From: an uncultured Candidatus Saccharibacteria bacterium
GTDB taxonomy: Bacteria; Patescibacteriota; Saccharimonadia; Saccharimonadales; JAGQNJ01
Assembly: GCA_964584895.1 (NCBI GenBank)
Contig: CAZPAW010000003.1
Location: 35,009-99,008, forward strand
Reading direction: 5' to 3'
Length of the DNA: 64,000 nt
The notes beneath the pieces were generated by a model. That model was not told the origin of the DNA. It saw only the letters and a list, made by a program, of their open reading frames with translations, and did no database searches. The position numbers and the translations under genes were made by a program. Every line of letters starts with the position of its first letter. Within the stretch, counting starts at the first letter, position 1. This document shows positions 14,676-61,070 of this stretch, in pieces.

Positions 14676-16055
14676 TTATGGTGCGAGTTTTAACTTGCCA
14701 AACAGTTCATTTATCTTAACTCGTTCTTGTTTAGTGGTATCTCTATCGCGAACAGTAACCGAATCATCGTCTAAAGTATCAAAATCTACTGTCACACAGT
14801 ATGGCGTACCGATTTCGTCCTGCCTTCTATACCGCTTACCAATATTGCCGTTATCATCAAATTCGCATGTCATCGTTTGGCTTAGGCTGTCAAATATTTC
14901 TTTAGCCTTTTTAACCAGCTCTGGTTTGTTCTTTAACAGCGGGAAAACAGCAACTTTAACAGGCGCAAGACTTGGCGATAACTTGAGGACCGTTCTGGTT
15001 TCGCCCTCTACTTCTTCCAGTACGTAAGCATCGCACAGCACAGCCAAAAACATCCGACCCAATCCAACTGATGTTTCTAGAATCCATGGAATGTACTTTT
15101 CATTAGTTACAGGATCTTGATAGTTCAAATCTTTGCCTGAAAACTTCATGTGCTGAGATAAATCGTAATCAGAACGATCATGTATACCCTCTAGTTCGTC
15201 AAAACCAAGCGACGGATAATTGTATTCTATATCCCAAGCCTCTTTGCAGTAAAAAACTAAGTATTCATGCTTTTTCCAGCGCAAATTTTCTGGATTGATT
15301 CCAATATCCAGATACCATTGCCAACGATCTTTTTTAATTTGTTCGTATGCGTCTTTATTCTGCTTTGGTTTTACGAAATACTGTGTGTCGGCCTGCTCCA
15401 TCTCGCGGGTTCGGAATAAAAAGTTGCGTGGGCTTATTTCGTTTCTAAAAGCTTTACCGATTTGTCCAATACCAAATGGTATTTTTACACGCGTGGTATC
15501 GACTACATTTTTGAAGTTAAGATAGATGCCTTGACATGCCTCACCCGGTAAATACACAGGTCTATCATCCTGACCAGTAAAATCACCAAGGTTTGATTTG
15601 ACTAGCAAATTAAATGGTCTAGCGTCTGTAAAATCTTTATTACCACATTTTGGGCACTTTATTTTATCGCGATTATCATTGAATAACTTGTTCAGCTCGG
15701 CTTCTGTCATTTTCTCATCCGCCTCAACACCAATTGCGCCGAGTTCTTTATCTACTCGAATCCGAGTATGACAAATCTTACATTCCGCCAGTGGATCTGC
15801 AAACCCACCAACATGGCCCGATGCTTCCCAGACTTTTGGATGCTTAAACATTGCTGAATCGAGTCCAACATAATTAGCTCTACTTGAAACATTCGCCTTC
15901 CACCAAGCTGCTTTTAGGTTATTTAATAACTCTACGCCGTAAGGGCCATAGTCATATAACCCAGCTTCTCCTCCATAAATTTCACTCCCCGGATATACAA
16001 ACCCACGTCGTTTACACAAGCTTACTATGTCTTCTAGGCTAACTTTTTTACTCAT
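14676..16055 (-). CDS. glyQS: Glycine--tRNA ligase (dimeric GlyQS type)
   Basis: N-terminal LCKRRGFVYPGSEIYGG, FRNEISPRNFLFRTREMEQ (motif 2) and a C-terminal anticodon-binding domain. Confidence 0.9.
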   Translation of the reverse strand: MSKKVSLEDIVSLCKRRGFVYPGSEIYGGEAGLYDYGPYGVELLNNLKAAWWKANVSSRANYVGLDSAMFKHPKVWEASGHVGGFADPLAECKICHTRIRVDKELGAIGVEADEKMTEAELNKLFNDNRDKIKCPKCGNKDFTDARPFNLLVKSNLGDFTGQDDRPVYLPGEACQGIYLNFKNVVDTTRVKIPFGIGQIGKAFRNEISPRNFLFRTREMEQADTQYFVKPKQNKDAYEQIKKDRWQWYLDIGINPENLRWKKHEYLVFYCKEAWDIEYNYPSLGFDELEGIHDRSDYDLSQHMKFSGKDLNYQDPVTNEKYIPWILETSVGLGRMFLAVLCDAYVLEEVEGETRTVLKLSPSLAPVKVAVFPLLKNKPELVKKAKEIFDSLSQTMTCEFDDNGNIGKRYRRQDEIGTPYCVTVDFDTLDDDSVTVRDRDTTKQERVKINELFGKLKLAP

Positions 16056-35459: not shown

Positions 35460-35825
35460 CTATCTTGTTTTACGCGAACGTAATTTTGCTAATATTTTGA
35501 GCGAAACCTTATGGTTGGTATGCTTATCCTTGTATTTTTTTAACTGATTTTTTAATTTTGTTTCAACGATATCAATTGCTGCATACATATTTATAGTAGA
35601 TTCCTTCGTGTTAATACTTTCTTTAGGTAACACGAGCATAACTTCACAAGTACATTCTTTTTTAGTTTTTATTACACGTTCTTTTAGATAGACTTTTACA
35701 TGAACTGAATCACGAGCATACCTAGGAATATACTTGTCTAGTTTTCCGATCTTTTTTTCAGCGTATTTGCGTAAATTCGCATCAATTTTTAAGTTTACAC
35801 CTTGTATTTCCATTTTGTTAATCAT
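35460..35825 (-). CDS. hpf: Ribosome hibernation promoting factor / RaiA family (short form)
   Basis: MEIQGVNLKIDANLRKYAEKKIGKLDKY is typical of HPF. TAATG overlap with serS; ATG 35813 is an alternative start. Confidence 0.8.
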   Translation of the reverse strand: MINKMEIQGVNLKIDANLRKYAEKKIGKLDKYIPRYARDSVHVKVYLKERVIKTKKECTCEVMLVLPKESINTKESTINMYAAIDIVETKLKNQLKKYKDKHTNHKVSLKILAKLRSRKTR

Positions 35826-37126
35826 TATATTTTCTCCCTTCCTTGCATATATGGTCTCAAAATTTTTGGAATTATCACATCTCCATCTTTTGTTTGATTA
35901 TTCTCTATAATCGCTATTAATGGACGCTCTGAAAATGCTGTTGCATCATTGTTGTGAACAAGCTGAATCTCTCCGTTGGCTCTTTTTACCCTAGTTTTTG
36001 TACGCCTAGCCTGATAATCGGTCATATAATCTGCGGTATGTGTCTCGCGATACTGTTTTTGCCCAGGTAGCCACGTATCAATATCAGTGCCCGAGGCATT
36101 CGGGCCACCGATATCAGCAGTACATTTTGTTACTACATTATATGGCAAGTCGAGACTTTGCATCAGGTATTCTTGAACAGCAATCATAAATCTATACTCT
36201 TCTTTACCGTCTTCTGGCAAATTAAAGCTCTCCATTTCTAATTTATTAAATTGATGGAGCCTCAACATGCCCTCCATATCTTTTCCATATGTTCCTGCTT
36301 CTTTTCGAAACGCCGTAGTGTATCCAAGTAATCTAATTGGAAATTGTTTTTCTTCTAATATCTCGCCCATGTACATAGGGGCAAGGACATGTTCGGCGCT
36401 GGCGTTAAGCCATAACTCCTCATCAGCTATTTGATATGTTTGCTCCTCTTTATTCAGCCTGCCAGTTGCTTCAAATACCTCTGTTGTAGCCATAGCTGGC
36501 GGCAAAACAAAACAAAATGGCTTATCGGCTACTTTAAGATTATTCTCATCGATAATTTTTTTAATAATTTTATGGTCAGTCAACTGCTCTATAGCAAACT
36601 GCCACAAAGCAAACTCCATTTGAGCAAGATCGCCTTTAATGTATAAAAATCTACTGCCCGCCACCTTAACAGCGCGCTCTTTGTCTATCCAACCTTTTTT
36701 TTGAGCGATCTCCCAATGATTTTTTACCGGAAAATCGAATTGCGGTTTATCACCAACTTTTTTTGATACTACATTGTCAGCTTCACTTTTACCAACCGGA
36801 ACATCTTTTAAAGGTATATTTGGGATCAATTTTAATTTTGATTGTAACTCTTGTTTAAGTTTTTCTAATTCGTCTTCTAGTGGAATCAATTCTTTCTTTA
36901 TTTCAATTCCTGCTTTTATTTGTGCTTCGCTCGGTTTACTTCCCTTGGCAGATTCTGCAATTATTCTACGCTTTGACCGAAGTTCATCAATTATTGGCGC
37001 AAGATGTCTTCTCTTGGCATCAATAGCATTAACTTCATCGACAATTTTCGAAACATCATAACCCTTTAATTTGCTCTTCTCTTTTACGTAATCTGGTTTT
37101 TCATTTATTATTTTAATATCTAACAT
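35825..37126 (-). CDS. serS: Serine--tRNA ligase
   Basis: N-terminal coiled-coil arm and class II core (TTAFRKEAGTYGKDMEGMLRLHQFNKLE). Confidence 0.95.
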   Translation of the reverse strand: MLDIKIINEKPDYVKEKSKLKGYDVSKIVDEVNAIDAKRRHLAPIIDELRSKRRIIAESAKGSKPSEAQIKAGIEIKKELIPLEDELEKLKQELQSKLKLIPNIPLKDVPVGKSEADNVVSKKVGDKPQFDFPVKNHWEIAQKKGWIDKERAVKVAGSRFLYIKGDLAQMEFALWQFAIEQLTDHKIIKKIIDENNLKVADKPFCFVLPPAMATTEVFEATGRLNKEEQTYQIADEELWLNASAEHVLAPMYMGEILEEKQFPIRLLGYTTAFRKEAGTYGKDMEGMLRLHQFNKLEMESFNLPEDGKEEYRFMIAVQEYLMQSLDLPYNVVTKCTADIGGPNASGTDIDTWLPGQKQYRETHTADYMTDYQARRTKTRVKRANGEIQLVHNNDATAFSERPLIAIIENNQTKDGDVIIPKILRPYMQGREKI

Positions 37127-39659: not shown

Positions 39660-41168
39660 TTAAAGCTTAATGTCAGGGTAAATGCTTTTTGTCGTCTGAT
39701 CTATCTCAGAACGTAACTGAGGAAAAGGTACTCCTTCTCGAGCTGATACGCCCTCAAAAATCCAAAAAACTCGTTCTGCATAACCTAAGCCACAAGCTGG
39801 CGGCATACCGTATTCAAGCATTTCTATATAATCAATATCCAACATCTGTGCTTCATCGTCACCTTCGTCGCGCATCTTTTGTTGTTCAACAAACCTGTGA
39901 AGTTGATCGACAGGATCATTTAGCTCGCTCCATCCATTACTAAGTTCACTGCCAGCAATAACGGCTTGAAAACGCTGAACAAATCGCGGATCTTTATCAT
40001 CAGTTTTTGAAAGCGGCGAAATAAAAGTAGGTGTATCAATTAACCAAACAGGTCCTGCAATAGTTGCCCTAACTTTTTTCCATAATTTATCTATCCCACG
40101 TGCTTTATTTTCAGTTTTTTCTACCTTAATATTATGTTTTTTTAATTCTTTTTTTATCTCATCGATTGTGCAATCAAAAACATCTATATCGTAATGTTCT
40201 TTTATCACATCAGCATACTTCCATCGCTCCCATTTAGCCCCCATATCGACCTTCATCCCTCGTACTTCAAATTCTAAAGTTCCAAAAGTATCGTGTAGTA
40301 CTTTTTTGAACATCTCTTCCATGAGTTGCATCCCATCTTCCCAATCAGCGTAAGCCCAATACCATTCCATAGCAATATGTTCTGGTAAATGCTCTTCACT
40401 GTAATTCTCGTTACGAAAGCGTGGCCCAATATCAAACACTTTTTCATAACCGCCTCCGATTAATCTCTTAAGTGGTAATTCATGACTAATCCTAAGATAG
40501 TAATCCTGATCTAAGGCATTCATATGCGTAATAAATGGCGTTGCATCAGCTCCGCCAGTAGTGTGCTCCAAAACTGGCACATTGATTTCAATAAAGCCTT
40601 TTTCTAACAGAAATTGTCTCGTTGATTGCCAGAACTTGCTACGCCGAATAAATCTTTGATATACATCACTATTAACGTTTGTGTCGATATACCGACGCCT
40701 TAACCTTTCTTCTTTATTGGTAAACCCGTCTTCTTTGGTTGGCATAGGACGAATAGATTTCGATAGCAGTCTCAATTTTTCTACAGCAATCGATATTTCG
40801 CCTGTTTTTGTTTTAATCACCTTCCCGCTACCCTCTACAAAATCTCCTGGATCGAGTAATTTAATATCAGAAAAATTTAATTCGCTATTAGCATAATCTA
40901 CTTTTTTTGCGGATTCTGCTTTATTAAATAACTGTATCTCTCCTGAAGAGTCTTTTATGACAACGAATGCCAATTTTCCAATATCTCTTATACGAGTAAT
41001 CCGACCAACGACTGATACTGTCTTGTTCTCAAGTACAGAAAATTTATCGACTATTTCAGAGTTAGTATGTGATCTTGTAGATTTTGCTGGGTATGGATTG
41101 ACGCCCAGTTTTTTCAAATCTTCAATTTTGCGTAACCTCTCGGCCCTAAGTTCATTCAAGTTTGCCAT
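39660..41168 (-). CDS. lysS: Lysine--tRNA ligase (class II)
   Basis: N-terminal OB anticodon-binding domain and class II motifs (FRNENYSEEHLPEHIAMEWY, GLGYAERV). Confidence 0.95.
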   Translation of the reverse strand: MANLNELRAERLRKIEDLKKLGVNPYPAKSTRSHTNSEIVDKFSVLENKTVSVVGRITRIRDIGKLAFVVIKDSSGEIQLFNKAESAKKVDYANSELNFSDIKLLDPGDFVEGSGKVIKTKTGEISIAVEKLRLLSKSIRPMPTKEDGFTNKEERLRRRYIDTNVNSDVYQRFIRRSKFWQSTRQFLLEKGFIEINVPVLEHTTGGADATPFITHMNALDQDYYLRISHELPLKRLIGGGYEKVFDIGPRFRNENYSEEHLPEHIAMEWYWAYADWEDGMQLMEEMFKKVLHDTFGTLEFEVRGMKVDMGAKWERWKYADVIKEHYDIDVFDCTIDEIKKELKKHNIKVEKTENKARGIDKLWKKVRATIAGPVWLIDTPTFISPLSKTDDKDPRFVQRFQAVIAGSELSNGWSELNDPVDQLHRFVEQQKMRDEGDDEAQMLDIDYIEMLEYGMPPACGLGYAERVFWIFEGVSAREGVPFPQLRSEIDQTTKSIYPDIKL

Positions 41169-41747: not shown

Positions 41748-43451
41748 CTAGCTTTGTCTGGCTAGTTTTTTAAGCAATTCTTCTTTTGATAGCATCTCAG
41801 TATCTTTTGCTGTCCTTTTTTTATACTCAAATTTGTTGGCTTCAACAGTTTTAGCGCTAACAACCACACGATGTGGTATACCAATCAGATCCGCATCGGC
41901 AAATTTCTCGCCAGGCCGCACATCACGATCATCGTACAACACCTCCACGCCCGTTTCTTGAAGCTCTCTGTATAGTCTTTGAGCTGCCTCAGATATTCTT
42001 GTATCGCTTCCAAGTTGAGCTACATATACTTGAAATGGTGCAACATTTTCTGGCCAAATAATACCGCGTTCATCGCTATAAATCTCAGCGATTGCCGCCA
42101 TAGTTCGACCTATGCCGATACCATAACATCCCATGTAATATTTTTGTCGTTTTCCAGCCTCATCTGTATACTCAGCACCTTTCATTAGATTCGTGTAGTG
42201 ATAACCTAATTGGAATATATTCCCTACTTCTATTCCCCGTCTTTCAATCAGTTTTTGTCCCGATGGAGCAATATATCCGGCTTTCGCCAACTTAATATCA
42301 TAGAATTTCTTTGGCTCTACCAAATCTCTTCCAAAATTTACGTTTATCGAGTGATAATCTGTCCGATTTGCACCCATTTCAAAGTTTCGTCTACCTCTCA
42401 TAGACTCATCCATAACCACAATTACTTCTTTCGGAAGATTTAGTAAGCCCGCATAACCAACTTCTGCGCCAGTAACACGTTTAACCGTTTCAGCCGATGC
42501 TAACGATAATGGTGAACCTTTAACTATCGCCTGCAATTTTGTCTCATTAATGTCAAAATCTCCCCGCACCGCTGCAGCGATAACTCTTCCCTGTTCGTCT
42601 TCAAAAATAATTGTTTTAGTTGTGAGCTCAGCAGGAATTTTTAAAAACTTAGCTAGCTCGTCGACGCCAATAATGCCCTTGCCTTCAACTTCTTCCATTG
42701 GCTTCTCAGATTCATCTTCATTTTCATAACGTTCGTACAAAAATGTTGCTACATCTTCGTGAGCGGCGTAACTTCCATCTTCTGTTGTAAAGTACGTACT
42801 TTCTCCAACCTTAGTCTCAGCCACAAATTCATGGCAGTATTCACCGCCAATATAACCGTTGTCTGCCGCCACGACATCTGTTTTTAGACCTAGTTCTTCG
42901 AAGATCACCGTATATACATCCCACATCTGCTGATAAATATCTTTAAACTGCGCTTCGGTGCTAAAACTATATGCATCTTTCATGATGAACTCTCGAACGC
43001 GCAGAAGTCCTCCCCGAGCGCGCATTTCATCGCGGAATTTCATCGAAAATTGGTACAAATTAAATGGAAGATCTTTGTAGCTGATATTAAACTTGCGTAC
43101 CAAATCAACGACCATTTCCTCAGCTGTACCCCCCAGGACAAAGTCGGCATCTCGTCGATCTTTAATGCCCATCAGTTCAAAACCAGCAGAGGTTGTGCGG
43201 TTCGTTTCTTTCCAGAGTTCAAGTGGATGTAGCACTGGCGTTACAATTTCCTGAGCGTTTGCTTGATTCATGTGTTTGCGCACAATATCAATAATCCGAT
43301 CATGTACCTTTAGGCCCAAAGGTAATAGGTAATATCGCCCAGCAGTTGATTCTCGAATAAAGCCAGCCTGCGTCAGCAAGCGATGTGAATCAATCTTATA
43401 ATCTAAACCTTCAGTTTTGGATGTCTTTCCAAATAATTGTGAGTATTTCAT
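41748..43451 (-). CDS. proS: Proline--tRNA ligase (bacterial type with INS editing domain)
   Basis: 567 aa, FRDEMRARGGLLRVREF (motif 2) and CYGIGIGR (motif 3). Confidence 0.95.
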   Translation of the reverse strand: MKYSQLFGKTSKTEGLDYKIDSHRLLTQAGFIRESTAGRYYLLPLGLKVHDRIIDIVRKHMNQANAQEIVTPVLHPLELWKETNRTTSAGFELMGIKDRRDADFVLGGTAEEMVVDLVRKFNISYKDLPFNLYQFSMKFRDEMRARGGLLRVREFIMKDAYSFSTEAQFKDIYQQMWDVYTVIFEELGLKTDVVAADNGYIGGEYCHEFVAETKVGESTYFTTEDGSYAAHEDVATFLYERYENEDESEKPMEEVEGKGIIGVDELAKFLKIPAELTTKTIIFEDEQGRVIAAAVRGDFDINETKLQAIVKGSPLSLASAETVKRVTGAEVGYAGLLNLPKEVIVVMDESMRGRRNFEMGANRTDYHSINVNFGRDLVEPKKFYDIKLAKAGYIAPSGQKLIERRGIEVGNIFQLGYHYTNLMKGAEYTDEAGKRQKYYMGCYGIGIGRTMAAIAEIYSDERGIIWPENVAPFQVYVAQLGSDTRISEAAQRLYRELQETGVEVLYDDRDVRPGEKFADADLIGIPHRVVVSAKTVEANKFEYKKRTAKDTEMLSKEELLKKLARQS

Positions 43452-43810
43452 TCTGTTGTCCTCTCGTTCATTCGTCTTATTGTACTATCTTTTAGTTCTA
43501 CATATCGATTTTTTTGAGGTGATTGCAATAATCCTCTAAGCGTCGAACGTCCAACGCATTTTATACTTTGAGCCCGAGCTTCATTCTCGGCTTTTCTGAT
43601 ATGATAGACATTCCCGCTACCATAGGCTTCGGCTACCCGTAATCTTAGCCCTGCCGACTGACTCTGATTAATACTTCTTAGCTCTTCTTGAGCTTGATAG
43701 GCGTCAAACTCTCTTAACCCAGCAACGAGTTCAGCTTGTTCGACAACATCTATAACAAAGGCCTGATCAACAGCTAAGCCCAGACTTTGTCCTAATATTT
43801 CTACGTTCAT
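43448..43810 (-). CDS. Hypothetical protein (120 aa) translationally coupled to proS
   Basis: AGGAGA SD 6 nt before ATG 43810, and the stop overlaps the proS start (ATGA). No recognisable domain. Confidence 0.4.
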   Translation of the reverse strand: MNVEILGQSLGLAVDQAFVIDVVEQAELVAGLREFDAYQAQEELRSINQSQSAGLRLRVAEAYGSGNVYHIRKAENEARAQSIKCVGRSTLRGLLQSPQKNRYVELKDSTIRRMNERTTE

Positions 43811-43825
43811 TCTATTCTCCTATTA

Positions 43826-43856
43826 ATTAAAAATCCGCTCTAATTTTATTGAGCGG
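43826..43856 (-). terminator. Candidate intrinsic terminator after the CPBP protease gene
   Basis: The minus strand reads CCGCUC-AAUAAAAUUA-GAGCGG followed by AUUUUUAAUU. A second small hairpin, CACCC-CGUGC-GGGUG, lies upstream at ~43900-43915. Confidence 0.45.
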
Positions 43857-43970
43857 AGGGTGTTTATTTAAGCTATTCTTCTAAGAATCAATCATTAACA
43901 CCCGCACGGGGTGGTGTCGGCACAATTAATAATTCACAGAAGTATTTAGTCATATTGGATATATTTTATA

Positions 43971-57632: not shown

Positions 57633-60554
57633 TTAGGCTTTTTGCAAGTTTATTGTAAGCTCGGCTCCTTCTAAAGTTGTAACTTCTGTGTATTTTAAAG
57701 TCTTTAATTCGCTAAGTAATGTAGTCGCAAGTGTCTCGGTCGCAATAGTCGTCTTGTACTCTTTTATAGCCTGTAAGACTTCCTTGTCGTTTGAAACAAG
57801 AGAAAGTTCGATTCTATCATCAACATTCAATCCAGCCTTTTTACGAGCATTTTGTACGTGTCGCACAATCTCACGCATTATGCCTTCACGTTTTAACGCA
57901 GGGGTTATCTTAGTATCTAGATTAATGATTAACTCATCTCCATCGGTCGTCCAACTAACTTCATGTATATTCAACTCATCCAATACAATGCCAACTAATT
58001 GATGTCTTTCTTTTTGGGACCAAGGCGCTCCACTTACGACAAGTTTTTCTAACGGTTGTCTAACTTTTATTTTTGCATGAGCCCTCTGAGCAAGTCCCTC
58101 ATTTATCAACGTTCGGACAAAATTCATCTCATCAATAAGACTAGTATCTGCCTTTTTTGCCTTTGGCCAATCGCTAAGATGAACTGATACGGGCAATGAG
58201 GTGCCAGTTGTCAACTCGCGCCACAAATAGTCGCTCAGAAACGGCGCCCATGGTGCTAATAGCTGGCAAAGACGAACTAACACAAACCATAGTGTCTCAT
58301 AGGCCTGATTCTTATCACTATCGTCTTCGCTCTTCCAGAAACGACGACGAGAACGACGAATAAACCAATTACTCATATCGTCTATTAGCACAAAGATAGG
58401 CTGAATAGCATGGGCAATTTTGTAGTCATCAGCACGACGAGTTGATTCCGTAATCGTTTCATTTAGGCGCGCAAAGATCCACTGGTCGAGCACATTGGCA
58501 CTTTGAGGTTGTTCACCAGGGTGGGCAGGATGCCAATCATCAATATCAGCATACATCTTAAAGAAGCGATAGGAATTCATAAGGGTACCTAGCACATTAC
58601 GGTTGAGGTCTTTTAGGGCGGTTCGATCAAAACGCATGTAATCAGCTACCTGGGTGGCTTGAGTACTAGAGAGCAAGAACAAACGCAGTGAATCAGCTCC
58701 TTCATCCTCAAACACATCTTCTACAGGGGGATAATTCTTGAGGCGCTTGGATAGCTTTTGACCATCAGCGGCCATAATCATACCGTTCACTACCACATTT
58801 TTATAGGCCGGTCGATCAAATAAGATCGTATTAACAACATGCTGCACATAAAACCAAAGACGCGTTTGATCCAACCCCTCGATAATAAAGTCGGCTGGGA
58901 AACTCTTTTCAAACGTCTCCTTGTTTTCGAATGGATAATGCTGCTGGCCAATGCTCATACACCCAGATTCGAACCAACAATCGATGACCTCTTCCACGCG
59001 GCGATAGGTTTTACCATCCTTCTTAATGACGACGTCATCAACTTTAGGACGGTGAACGTCTGATAGATCAAGGTCAGCCTGGCCGGCTAGTTGACGTAAT
59101 TGATCATAGCTCTCAATAACAATATAGTCGTCTTCGTCCTGCTCGTTCACCCAGACAGGCATAGGAGCACCCCAATAACGATTGCGTGATACTGCCCAGT
59201 CACGCGCCCCTTCCAGCCACTTTCCAAAACGCCCAGCTTTAATATGATCGGGTACCCAGTTGATTTCTTCTGCCGTCTTGATCAGTTGATCGCGAATGGA
59301 AGAAACCTTAATAAACCAGCTAGAGATAGCGTAGTACATCAGTGGTGTTTCGCAACGCCAACAGAAAGGATAGGTGTGAGTAAAGGTTAAGGCCGCATAA
59401 ACTCGATTTTTCTGGGTCAGATGTTCAATGATAAGCTTATCCGCCCCTTTGAAGAACTTACCCTCTACCTCATCAAAGCCGATACCGCCGATAACCTTAC
59501 CGCTGGCATCGATTGTTTTGAGCACAGGAATATTGTTCGCTTGACCAAGATTGAGGTCGTCCTCACCAAAAGCTGGCGCGACGTGCAAGATGCCACTTCC
59601 GTCATCAATACTGACAAAATCGGCTGCCCATAACTTGTAGAGATTCTCTTTACCTTCAGCGGTCTTGGCTTGCTCGACATCAAATAAGGGCTCGTAAGTT
59701 AAGCCCACTAAATCACGCCCATGAACCTCTTTTTCAACCTGATAATCGTCGCTAGCTAAAGCTTCGAGGCGTTTTTGGGCTAGAACCAGTACTTCTTCCA
59801 CCCCGTCGTCATCTTTTAAGCGTACATAAACGTACTTCTCTTCTGGATTAACAGCAATAGCAGCATTACCCGGCAATGACCAAGGTGTTGTAGTCCAACC
59901 CAATAAAAAGGCCTCTTGATCGACCAGTTTAAACTTTATGAATAAACTTGGATCTGGCACGTTGTCCTTGTAGCCATCATTTACCTCAAAGTTAGATAAC
60001 GGCGTTTCGCAACGCGGACAATAGGCAGTACTCTTGAAACCTCTATAGAGTAGACCCTTGTCATTGATCTGTGACATTGCCCACCAAACACTCTCGGTAT
60101 AACTATTATCGACTGTAGCATAATAGTGATCGTATTCACTCCAACGACCAAGGCGCTGTAATAAGACCTCCCACTCGCCTTTGTATTTAAAAATAGAGTC
60201 GCTGCAGGCATTGTTAAACTTCTCAAGACCTAACTCTAGAATCTGCTTTTTACCGCTGACACCAAACTCCTTTTCGATTGCAAACTCTACCGGGAGACCA
60301 TGGCAGTCCCAACCATTACGTCGTGGAACGTAAAAACCCTGCATGGTTTTATACCGCAACATTGAATCCTTAATACTAGTGACCAAACTATGTCCAAAGT
60401 GAGGTAAACCGTTGGCAAAAGGTGGACCATCGTAGAAACTGAAGTACGGTTTGCCTTGTCGCTGCTTGATACTTTGCTGAAATGTACCTTCTTTCTGCCA
60501 GGTCGCCAGCATATTCTCTTCGATAATCGCCAGATTTGATTTCTTTTCCGCCAT
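57633..60554 (-). CDS. ileS: Isoleucine--tRNA ligase, type 2 (eukaryote-like) signature
   Basis: HIGH region PPFANGLPHFGH and KMSKS region KLSKRLKNYPP. 973 aa, and I saw no C-terminal Zn-ribbon of the type 1 enzyme. Confidence 0.95.
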   Translation of the reverse strand: MAEKKSNLAIIEENMLATWQKEGTFQQSIKQRQGKPYFSFYDGPPFANGLPHFGHSLVTSIKDSMLRYKTMQGFYVPRRNGWDCHGLPVEFAIEKEFGVSGKKQILELGLEKFNNACSDSIFKYKGEWEVLLQRLGRWSEYDHYYATVDNSYTESVWWAMSQINDKGLLYRGFKSTAYCPRCETPLSNFEVNDGYKDNVPDPSLFIKFKLVDQEAFLLGWTTTPWSLPGNAAIAVNPEEKYVYVRLKDDDGVEEVLVLAQKRLEALASDDYQVEKEVHGRDLVGLTYEPLFDVEQAKTAEGKENLYKLWAADFVSIDDGSGILHVAPAFGEDDLNLGQANNIPVLKTIDASGKVIGGIGFDEVEGKFFKGADKLIIEHLTQKNRVYAALTFTHTYPFCWRCETPLMYYAISSWFIKVSSIRDQLIKTAEEINWVPDHIKAGRFGKWLEGARDWAVSRNRYWGAPMPVWVNEQDEDDYIVIESYDQLRQLAGQADLDLSDVHRPKVDDVVIKKDGKTYRRVEEVIDCWFESGCMSIGQQHYPFENKETFEKSFPADFIIEGLDQTRLWFYVQHVVNTILFDRPAYKNVVVNGMIMAADGQKLSKRLKNYPPVEDVFEDEGADSLRLFLLSSTQATQVADYMRFDRTALKDLNRNVLGTLMNSYRFFKMYADIDDWHPAHPGEQPQSANVLDQWIFARLNETITESTRRADDYKIAHAIQPIFVLIDDMSNWFIRRSRRRFWKSEDDSDKNQAYETLWFVLVRLCQLLAPWAPFLSDYLWRELTTGTSLPVSVHLSDWPKAKKADTSLIDEMNFVRTLINEGLAQRAHAKIKVRQPLEKLVVSGAPWSQKERHQLVGIVLDELNIHEVSWTTDGDELIINLDTKITPALKREGIMREIVRHVQNARKKAGLNVDDRIELSLVSNDKEVLQAIKEYKTTIATETLATTLLSELKTLKYTEVTTLEGAELTINLQKA

Positions 60555-60566
60555 AGAACTCCTTTA

Positions 60567-60775
60567 TAAAAACTAAAAACCTCAAAAGGTTTTTCTGGAT
60601 CCCTTGCACGGGAGGTACCATCCAGATTCCTTTGAGGTTATTTCTCAAAAGCACTTAGTTAATTGCTGTAACGGGCTTACCCGGCGAATTCTAGTCTTGC
60701 ATCAAAGCAATTTCTTTTCGCATCCGTTCAGTTATTGAACTGATTGTAGTTGATAGCTACTAATAACGGATATCT
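60567..60775 (-). promoter_or_regulatory. T-box-like tRNA(Ile)-sensing leader with an intrinsic terminator upstream of ileS
   Basis: On the minus strand, the hairpin GUAG-CUAUCAA-CUAC (60760-60746) displays AUC followed by A. The bulged helix UCUGGA-[UGGUACC]-UCCC-GUGCAA-GGGA-UCCAGA (60626-60594) has the canonical antiterminator architecture. It is enclosed by ACCUCAAAGG / CCUUUUGAGGU and followed by UUUUUAGUUUUU, then the AAGGAG SD and the AUG. Confidence 0.7.
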
Positions 60776-60800
60776 ACAGACAAATATACTCTATAAACCC

Positions 60801-61070
60801 CTATCGTTCAACAAGATAAGCAGATACTTCATCAATCAGTGGCATTGTCTCTGTAGCCACCCAACTACTGACTAATTGCCCACCATTATCCAGGGCAACA
60901 ACTGTTGGATAACTGACTATGTCATATAATTCAACTAGTTTAATGCCCTCTATTGAATCAACATCCAACAACTCTATAGCTCTTGACGTTCTACGTAAAA
61001 AATCTCGAGCATACTGTTCAACCATAGTCCCGTGTTCGGACTGGGGTCTATAAAGCACAACTACTTTCAT
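60801..61070 (-). CDS. Small thioredoxin/glutaredoxin-fold-like protein lacking any cysteine
   Basis: 89 aa with a beta-alpha-beta start (MKVVVLYRP), where SEHG sits at the usual CxxC position, and a cis-Pro-like motif (SYPTVVAL). It has no Cys residues. It lies immediately downstream of nrdJ. Confidence 0.5.
   Translation of the reverse strand: MKVVVLYRPQSEHGTMVEQYARDFLRRTSRAIELLDVDSIEGIKLVELYDIVSYPTVVALDNGGQLVSSWVATETMPLIDEVSAYLVER

Follow-up and report, generated by a model that had tools for sequence, protein, structure and literature searches.

The 64,000-nucleotide stretch of DNA analysed here (the window) belongs to an uncultured Candidatus Saccharibacteria bacterium (contig CAZPAW010000003.1) and carries on its minus strand ileS, the gene of isoleucine-tRNA ligase. 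Judged by its sequence, the RNA leader of this gene is a genuine tRNA-sensing T-box riboswitch of the kind with a short Stem I and is conserved across the lineage; its membership of the T-box family is secure. The terminator of this element does not replace the antiterminator-type hairpin (helices A1 and A2 with the T-box bulge between them) but encloses it. Probably, the element senses tRNA-Ile and controls ileS by transcription attenuation, with uncharged tRNA-Ile blocking termination by means of a docked Stem III. The elements themselves, their conservation, their covariation and their nesting are what we observe. An earlier note on the same DNA had described the leader as such a T-box, and all ten sequence strings quoted there are exact matches on the minus strand, at the very positions it gave for them.

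A T-box with a short Stem I precedes ileS

The gene 3' of the leader is an open reading frame (ORF) at 57633-60554(-) that matches isoleucine-tRNA ligase (TIGR00392) with 867 bits. When Rfam was searched with cmscan and E-value reporting, the T-box model RF00230 aligned over its full length (model positions 1-219) to 60593-60776(-), with a score of 35.6 bits and an E-value of 2e-6 for the region and 3e-4 for the 64-kb window; this match to the ileS leader is the sole one at E<=1 in the window. At gathering thresholds, Rfam has no match anywhere in the window. The 65 Stem I positions of the model are reduced to 25 nucleotides in the leader. To the remainder, cmscan assigns Stem II (GCGAA...UUCGC, with the S-turn motifs GAA/UAGA), a IIA/F-box element (CGGGUAAGCCCGUUA), Stem III (CUUUUGAG...CUCAAAGG) and the T-box sequence (AAUCUGGAUGGUACCUCCC). 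The leaders of 34 relatives (see below) reach at most 37.2 bits and an E-value of 0.1 or better in only 10 of 34 cases; as the scores of all leaders are below the threshold, annotation at Rfam thresholds misses the whole group. With the full-length match and the 34 conserved relatives, the identification as a T-box made in the earlier note is supported.

The sequence TGGNACC occurs ten times in the window, and the ileS site alone sits in a leader with a complementary A1 helix; two further sites with a match to the A1 complement were rejected because they are within coding ORFs. In 200 of 200 comparisons with dinucleotide shuffles the 246-nt leader has the better fold (z = -3.1), and its minimum free energy (MFE) structure includes the nested long hairpin.

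Relatives were gathered with the N-terminal 400 residues of IleS: 23 loci are from metagenome-assembled genomes (MAGs) of Saccharibacteria or Patescibacteria (52-87% IleS identity) and 13 come from metagenomes. Close relatives (52-84% identity) account for 11 of these 13. A homologous leader is present at all 23 genome loci and at 10 of the 11 close metagenome relatives, the one exception being locus L032, which has none. It is also present at L040, a distant metagenome locus with only 43% IleS identity. The window and 34 relatives were aligned with MAFFT, and the counts and percentages given below refer to these 35 leaders.

The decoding half of the leader is conserved

Stem I occupies positions 60722-60771(-). 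Its specifier hairpin GUAGCUAUCAACUAC (GUAG-CUAUCAA-CUAC, 60760-60746) presents the triplet AUC (60754-60752), followed by the purine A (60751), in a 7-nt apical loop, and AUC-A matches the isoleucine of the regulated gene. AUCA is invariant in the apical loop of 35/35 leaders and the entire loop reads CUAUCAA in 25, in agreement with the Ile specifier in a terminal loop that had been proposed from the window sequence. The four base pairs of the hairpin are paired in 99.3% of cells, with changes on both sides in 4/4 pairs. Stem I of the window is closed by an outer helix (AUCCGUU 60771-60765 / AACGGAU 60728-60722) and holds a second small hairpin (CAGUUCAAUAACUG, 60742-60729) 3' of the specifier hairpin. 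The earlier note had listed both as parts of the element; they are present in the window, and beyond it they are limited to its subclade (window, L001, L002), where the extra hairpin creates a three-way junction at the base of Stem I. The other clade (L011, L013-L018, L023 and others) has a lineage-specific hairpin on the 5' side of UGA, where the K-turn bulge is situated. The flanks at the Stem I base read UGA...GAA in about half of the relatives and most have an A.G pair beside the stem.

Stem II (60684-60721(-)) consists, according to the cmscan alignment, of a lower helix (GCGAA/UUCGC) and an apical hairpin (UUGC-UUUGAU-GCAA), which are separated by an internal loop (AAGAAA / GACUAGAA) that resembles an S-turn by its sequence motifs. 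Of the cells in the lower helix, 89.7% are paired, 5/5 pairs have changes on both sides, and AGAA and UAGA are invariant or nearly so. It is followed by the Stem IIA hairpin CGGG-UAAG-CCCG and an F-box-like CCGUUA (60668-60683(-), also from the cmscan alignment). In the window, L001-L004, L006, L016, L029 and L036, this plain hairpin with its F-box-like sequence seems to replace the IIA/B pseudoknot, and the replacement within the window subclade fits the published finding that there is no strict requirement for the full IIA/B pseudoknot topology (PMC7583486). In most other lineages IIB is kept as a covarying pairing of 4-6 bp, for example CUGAU/AUCAG, CAGC/GCUG or CAACU/AGUUG; the mismatched-partner control for IIB is weak, as 12% of mismatched pairs attain the native median.

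The discriminator consists of Stem III, A1 and A2

The published definition of the discriminator comprises Stem III, A1 and A2 with the motif 5'-RRRxG-Stem III-AA-3' (PMC7583486). By this definition, the purine string of the window is AAGUG (60652-60656(-)), directly 5' of Stem III (60629-60651(-)). Stem III has 8 bp, formed by CUUUUGAG (60651-60644) and CUCAAAGG (60636-60629) around the loop AAAUAAC, and is followed by the AA linker (60627-60628(-)), the 3' part of the purine string, which is invariant or nearly so among the leaders; the window thus has the RRRxG-Stem III-AA motif. The earlier note had seen in CUUUUGAG a 'third copy' of a terminator strand that could pair with CUCAAAGG, and proposed a three-way competition. 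The idea of competition holds; the 'third copy' itself is the 5' strand of an ordinary Stem III flanked by AAGUG and AA, because cmscan assigns exactly these two strands to Stem III.

Two main types of Stem III are found. In the window clade (17 leaders including L040) a full Stem III of 8-9 bp follows AAGNG or GAGNG and precedes AA; the native duplexes have a median of -7.0 kcal/mol versus -1.2 kcal/mol for mismatched ones, and 0/140 mismatched duplexes reach the native median. A second clade of about 16 leaders has a mini-hairpin of 3 bp as its Stem III, with the sequence UCC-NNNN-GGA (CCC-UCUC-GGG in L037).

The antiterminator-type hairpin UCUGGA-[UGGUACC]-UCCC-GUGCAA-GGGA-UCCAGA (60626-60594(-)) is defined by both the cmscan alignment and the string check, and the 7-nt T-box bulge UGGUACC lies at 60620-60614(-) between A1 and A2. 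The placement of this bulge in the earlier note stands: it reads UGGUACC in 34/35 leaders and UGGAACC in the remaining one, and A1 and A2 covary. Helix A1 (UCUGGA/UCCAGA) is 98.6% paired with changes on both sides in 4/6 pairs, helix A2 (UCCC-GUGCAA-GGGA) is 97.1% paired with such changes in 4/4 pairs. When the Stem I hairpin, Stem II, A1 and A2 are pooled, 17/19 pairs have compensatory changes; 0/500 shuffles reach the observed score, and sliding the 3' partners by 1-3 columns reduces pairing to 35-48%. RNAalifold, run without a supplied structure, returns the same four helices with 18 pairs, 16 of them compensatory. The comparative alignment that the earlier note had suggested as a check therefore finds covariation in all four of these helices.

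In the window and 8 relatives the basal pair of A2 (60613/60600; alignment columns 247/301) is U-A; 21 leaders have G.U, 4 have G-C and 1 has G-A (unpaired). The single UGGAACC bulge is that of L037:703-875, with an IleS of 52% identity, and predicts, from the bulge sequence, that this organism has a tRNA-Ile with U73. The bulge and the 5' strand of A2 (60610-60616) read ACCUCC, similar to an anti-Shine-Dalgarno sequence, and the Shine-Dalgarno sequence (SD) of ileS is AAGGAG (60559-60564); a pairing between the two was dropped, as it is not conserved in the relatives.

The terminator encloses the antiterminator-type hairpin

The terminator 5' strand ACCUCAAAGG (60638-60629(-)) consists of the last two nucleotides of the Stem III loop and the Stem III 3' strand. 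It pairs with the terminator 3' strand CCUUUUGAGGU (60579-60589(-)), the resulting helix encloses the A1-bulge-A2 hairpin, and it is followed by the U-tract UUUUUAGUUUUUA (60567-60579(-)). This arrangement, already described for the window in the earlier note, recurs in the relatives: in the MFE structure of the discriminator-terminator segment, 33/35 leaders keep all 6 A1 pairs within 6-16 enclosing pairs. The enclosing helix ends 0-1 nt ahead of the U-tract in 33/35 leaders and at least 5 of the 8 nucleotides after it are U in 32/35, compared to an overall U fraction of 0.23 in the leaders.

Column-wise pair counts for the enclosing helix on the MAFFT alignment (54% paired) were set aside, since bulges shift the register between the clades; instead, duplex energies were calculated for each sequence and compared with a mismatched-partner control. 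For each of the 18 different sequences of the 5' strand there is a matching 3' strand of its own. The median energy of native duplexes is -13.8 kcal/mol, whereas duplexes with the 3' strand of a dissimilar leader have a mean of -6.0 +/- 2.6 kcal/mol and only 0.45% of these reach the native median; shuffled 3' strands behave similarly to mismatched partners.

In 33/35 leaders, then, the terminator does not exclude A1 and A2, and the shared 3' strand of the textbook T-box is not found. Mutually exclusive folds are the rule among described T-boxes (PMC7583486, PMC10907184), and the true terminator could be one that uses the 3' strands of A1 and A2, with the nested helix being a folding artefact; the terminators of L040 and L033 do overlap A1. 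However, the window has no complement of GGGAUCCAGA between A1 and the start codon, A1 is intact in the MFE structure of 33/35 leaders, and the enclosing helix covaries over 18 sequence types, and we regard canonical switching in these leaders as very improbable. L033:763-951, a leader of Saccharibacteria type, lacks the enclosing helix; its terminator is a separate hairpin of 8 bp (ACGCCGCA-UAUU-UGCGGUGU) and shares 2 nt with the 3' strand of A1.

What the terminator 5' strand overlaps, in every nested lineage, is Stem III or the purine string and not the antiterminator strands. The partner of the terminator 3' strand in the window clade is the Stem III loop together with the Stem III 3' strand. 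In the second clade the partner is the whole mini Stem III, often extended by the final G of RRRxG and the first A of AA, and in L010 and L012 the partner is AGUCCC, the purine string itself. The terminator fold of the window has -24.4 kcal/mol versus -20.8 kcal/mol for the fold with Stem III and A1-bulge-A2; in the relatives, the difference between terminator fold and alternative fold is -7 to -15 kcal/mol. In the MFE structure of the full leader, the freed 5' strand of Stem III pairs with the U-tract and the SD, a pairing that is not conserved in the relatives.

A proposed latch model for the switch

In published structures, the duplex between the tRNA NCCA end and the bulge stacks on A1 and takes up the docked purine string in its minor groove, while the antiterminator by itself has no appreciable tRNA binding (PMC7583486). 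With a mimic of charged tRNA, the NCCA end is still paired, the linker is flexible and Stem III leaves the antisequestrator; the sequestrator then forms (PMC12647780). From these structures and from the anatomy of the leader we infer the dependence on tRNA, the termination and the way in which docking may block strand invasion. The anticodon of uncharged tRNA-Ile would pair with AUC and its NCCA end with UGGU; Stem III and the purine string would dock as a 'latch' on the duplex between NCCA and bulge, the terminator 5' strand would become unavailable and RNA polymerase would read through. With charged tRNA, or with none, Stem III would be undocked, the downstream strand would invade it from its A1-proximal end, the basal helix would close and transcription would stop. 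The OFF fold would be one long hairpin with an intact A1-bulge-A2 at its tip, followed by the U-tract. The A1-bulge-A2 hairpin is common to both folds and only Stem III and the purine string have to swap partner. As RRRxG and AA lie at opposite ends of the enclosing helix of about 10 bp, they would not form a single purine string in the terminator fold, so that the two states probably exclude each other at the tertiary level.

Points against this reading and alternatives to it

Several observations weigh against the latch model. The mini Stem III UCC-NNNN-GGA of about half of the relatives has only -1.1 kcal/mol, and L010 and L012 lack Stem III, of which CCC is left; in these leaders with a weak Stem III or none, the latch would need to keep a 10-nt strand from joining a helix whose total stability is greater by 7-13 kcal/mol. 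They suit a steric switch in which Stem III has no role and the bulk or rigidity that a bulge-bound tRNA gives to the hairpin tip prevents the basal helix from closing in the RNA exit channel of the polymerase: the mini Stem IIIs are very weak, L010 and L012 still have the enclosing helix and the U-tract, and the nested hairpin occurs in both folds. Such a switch would not, however, predict the overlap of the terminator 5' strand with Stem III or the purine string that is seen in every lineage. Moreover, RRRxG-Stem III-AA is conserved, the full Stem III covaries in the window clade, and in known structures A1 has the acceptor stem stacked on its bulge side (PMC7583486), far from the A1 base at which the enclosing helix forms. 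A steric switch is thus possible but unlikely.

The window leader itself lacks several features of a typical T-box. The base of its A2 is without the G.U wobble that is known as a steric sensor (PMC7583486), the K-turn GA pairs at the base of its Stem I are degenerate (UUA...AAU), and the Stem IIB pseudoknot has no credible pairing in the window clade. The covariance-model check proposed in the earlier note gave a match, at E = 3e-4, with a score of 35.6 bits that is far under the gathering score of 93. No tRNA genes were found in the window or at the 34 relative loci, and the bulge U would pair with a predicted A73. The first three of these features could mean that the element has decayed or been repurposed, either into a constitutive attenuator independent of tRNA or into one with the opposite logic, where tRNA stabilises the long hairpin. 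Against this, little or no change is seen down to 43% IleS identity in AUCA, UGGUACC, the S-turn motifs, RRRxG and AA, and every helix has compensatory changes, which shows selection for tRNA binding; repression of ileS under uncharged tRNA-Ile would also be maladaptive. There is little reason to favour decay or repurposing, and we give either a very small chance.

Hairpin-plus-U terminators showed no excess over shuffles in a crude scan of the genome (20 vs 13.9 +/- 3.9; 11 vs 11.4; 10 vs 12.0), and for this reason intrinsic termination is unproven in this organism; the simple scanner, with its loop limit of 8 nt, is blind to a nested terminator. The missing terminator enrichment would agree with a translational T-box as in Actinobacteria, in which the enclosing helix is a closing stem, the U-run a spacer or enhancer, and ribosome access is what is controlled. 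The decoding module is indeed of the actinobacterial translational type (PMC7583486, PMC10651847) and the freed Stem III 5' strand contacts the U-run and the SD in the MFE structure of the full leader. Yet the SD (60564-60559) lies 14 nt 3' of the helix and in no conserved pairing, and the geometry of helix and U-tract is kept in 32-33 of the 35 leaders. Also, in five relatives (L001, L012, L021, L030, L038) an extra ORF separates ileS from the T-box terminator, and the element precedes the gene by 420-800 nt; this suits transcriptional control and suggests that the T-box heads a small operon in these five. Translational control is, on balance, quite unlikely.

Comparison with known T-boxes

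Like the window element, the T-boxes of Actinobacteria with a short or 'ultrashort' Stem I (Mycobacterium tuberculosis, Nocardia farcinica, Mycobacterium smegmatis; PMC7583486, PMC10651847, PMC12647780) regulate ileS, and both have AUC and a purine in the apical loop and no distal platform for the tRNA elbow. The earlier note had been reminded of these elements, and the likeness is real and extends to the numbering, as C14 is part of the loop and A19 follows the specifier (PMC10651847, PMC7583486); in the consensus of the relatives, UCC-GUU-UGA-GCGG, C14 is likewise a loop nucleotide and position 19 a purine, which agrees with N. farcinica (PMC10651847, PMC7583486). A Stem II with an S-turn, recognised in the Saccharibacteria leaders by its sequence motifs, is a further point of agreement. 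The output is different: the actinobacterial elements sequester the SD, whereas those of Saccharibacteria have a terminator-like helix and a U-tract and leave the SD outside the helix. The M. tuberculosis sequestrator needs large-scale unfolding of the antisequestrator (PMC12647780), while the helix of Saccharibacteria spares A1 and A2 and consumes Stem III. The bulges differ too: Saccharibacteria have UGGU, whereas M. tuberculosis, with a tRNA that ends in GCCA, apparently has UGGC. For the actinobacterial side, this comparison draws on reviews and later papers.

Class I T-boxes (RF00230; for example Bacillus subtilis tyrS and glyQS) share with the window element the UGGNACC bulge between A1 and A2, the RRRxG-Stem III-AA motif, a terminator hairpin with U-tract and a leader that starts just after the promoter. 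They differ in their Stem I, which is short in the window but long in class I, where an internal loop holds the specifier and a distal platform is present; according to reviews, transcriptional T-boxes generally need such an architecture. Furthermore, in class I the 3' halves of A1 and A2 supply the 5' strand of the terminator, which makes terminator and antiterminator mutually exclusive (PMC7583486, PMC10907184), in contrast to the nested terminator of the window. The distant leader L040:768-966 (VAPH01055591.1) shares the apical-loop specifier (GUAA-CUAUCAA-UUAC), the S-turn, AAGCG-Stem III-AA and the UGGUACC bulge and differs in its canonical terminator ACUCCUG...CAGGAGU, for which the A1 3' strand is used. 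The combination of a short Stem I with an ordinary transcription terminator therefore also exists in nature.

In TBDB, the class II model was run on Actinobacteria only (PMC7778990). A full-text literature search, whose coverage did not extend to older papers on short Stem I, returned no T-box account for Saccharibacteria, Patescibacteria or the candidate phyla radiation, and, as far as could be checked, both the terminator topology and the host phylum are new. Whether Saccharibacteria carry a previously undescribed subclass of T-box we judge to be an evenly balanced question.

The ileS locus and its neighbours

A promoter-like site (TTGAAC, 17-nt spacer, TATATT; 60783-60811(-)), assigned by consensus match only, overlaps the stop codon of an upstream ORF, and the T-box begins about 7-12 nt downstream of it. 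Relatives have TATAGT, TATACT or TATAAT at equal distance to TATATT of the window. The upstream ORF (60801-61070(-)), directly preceding the T-box promoter, encodes 89 amino acids and has no match in NCBIfam; several relatives keep it at the same position, judged by a common C-terminal ...YLVER. At the other end of the leader, both the SD AAGGAG (60564-60559) and the ileS start codon AUG (60554-60552), together spanning 60552-60564(-), lie outside the terminator helix.

The IleS protein of the window (57633-60554(-)) is MupA/MupB-like, that is, type 2 and archaeal/eukaryote-like, and scores 712-730 bits against the mupirocin-resistance models. Its nearest matches beyond Patescibacteria are from Thermoplasmata, a Planctomycetota MAG and an unclassified bacterial MAG (42-45% identity).

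Four further aminoacyl-tRNA synthetase (aaRS) genes were confirmed in the window: glyS (14676-16055), serS (35825-37126), lysS (39660-41168) and proS (41748-43451). Scans of the 64-kb window found neither an RF00230 match nor a UGGNACC bulge in the leader of any of these. The statement of the earlier note that the other five aaRS genes have no such leader thus holds for these four, while the fifth gene was not located. Upstream of proS, 519 nt (43452-43970) have no long ORF and the Rfam scan of this region was negative.

Implications

T-boxes are the textbook case of a structured RNA that senses another RNA, and their output is described as terminator versus antiterminator. If the latch model is true, the sensing of aminoacylation would be passed on through undocking of Stem III and linker alone, and a lineage-wide variant of this kind would show that the latch of Stem III and purine string can carry the regulatory signal by itself. 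The nested wiring bears on the current dispute over how the aminoacyl group is sensed (PMC12647780) and would be a direct natural test of the 'A1 shearing' versus the 'linker/Stem III undocking' model. It would also mean that a transcriptional T-box can function without the Stem I elbow platform.

As Rfam thresholds miss the entire group, a family-specific model is needed. The element extends the host range of T-boxes to the Candidate Phyla Radiation, whose members are reduced epibionts that obtain amino acids from their hosts. Within the window, ileS appears to be the sole aaRS gene under T-box control.

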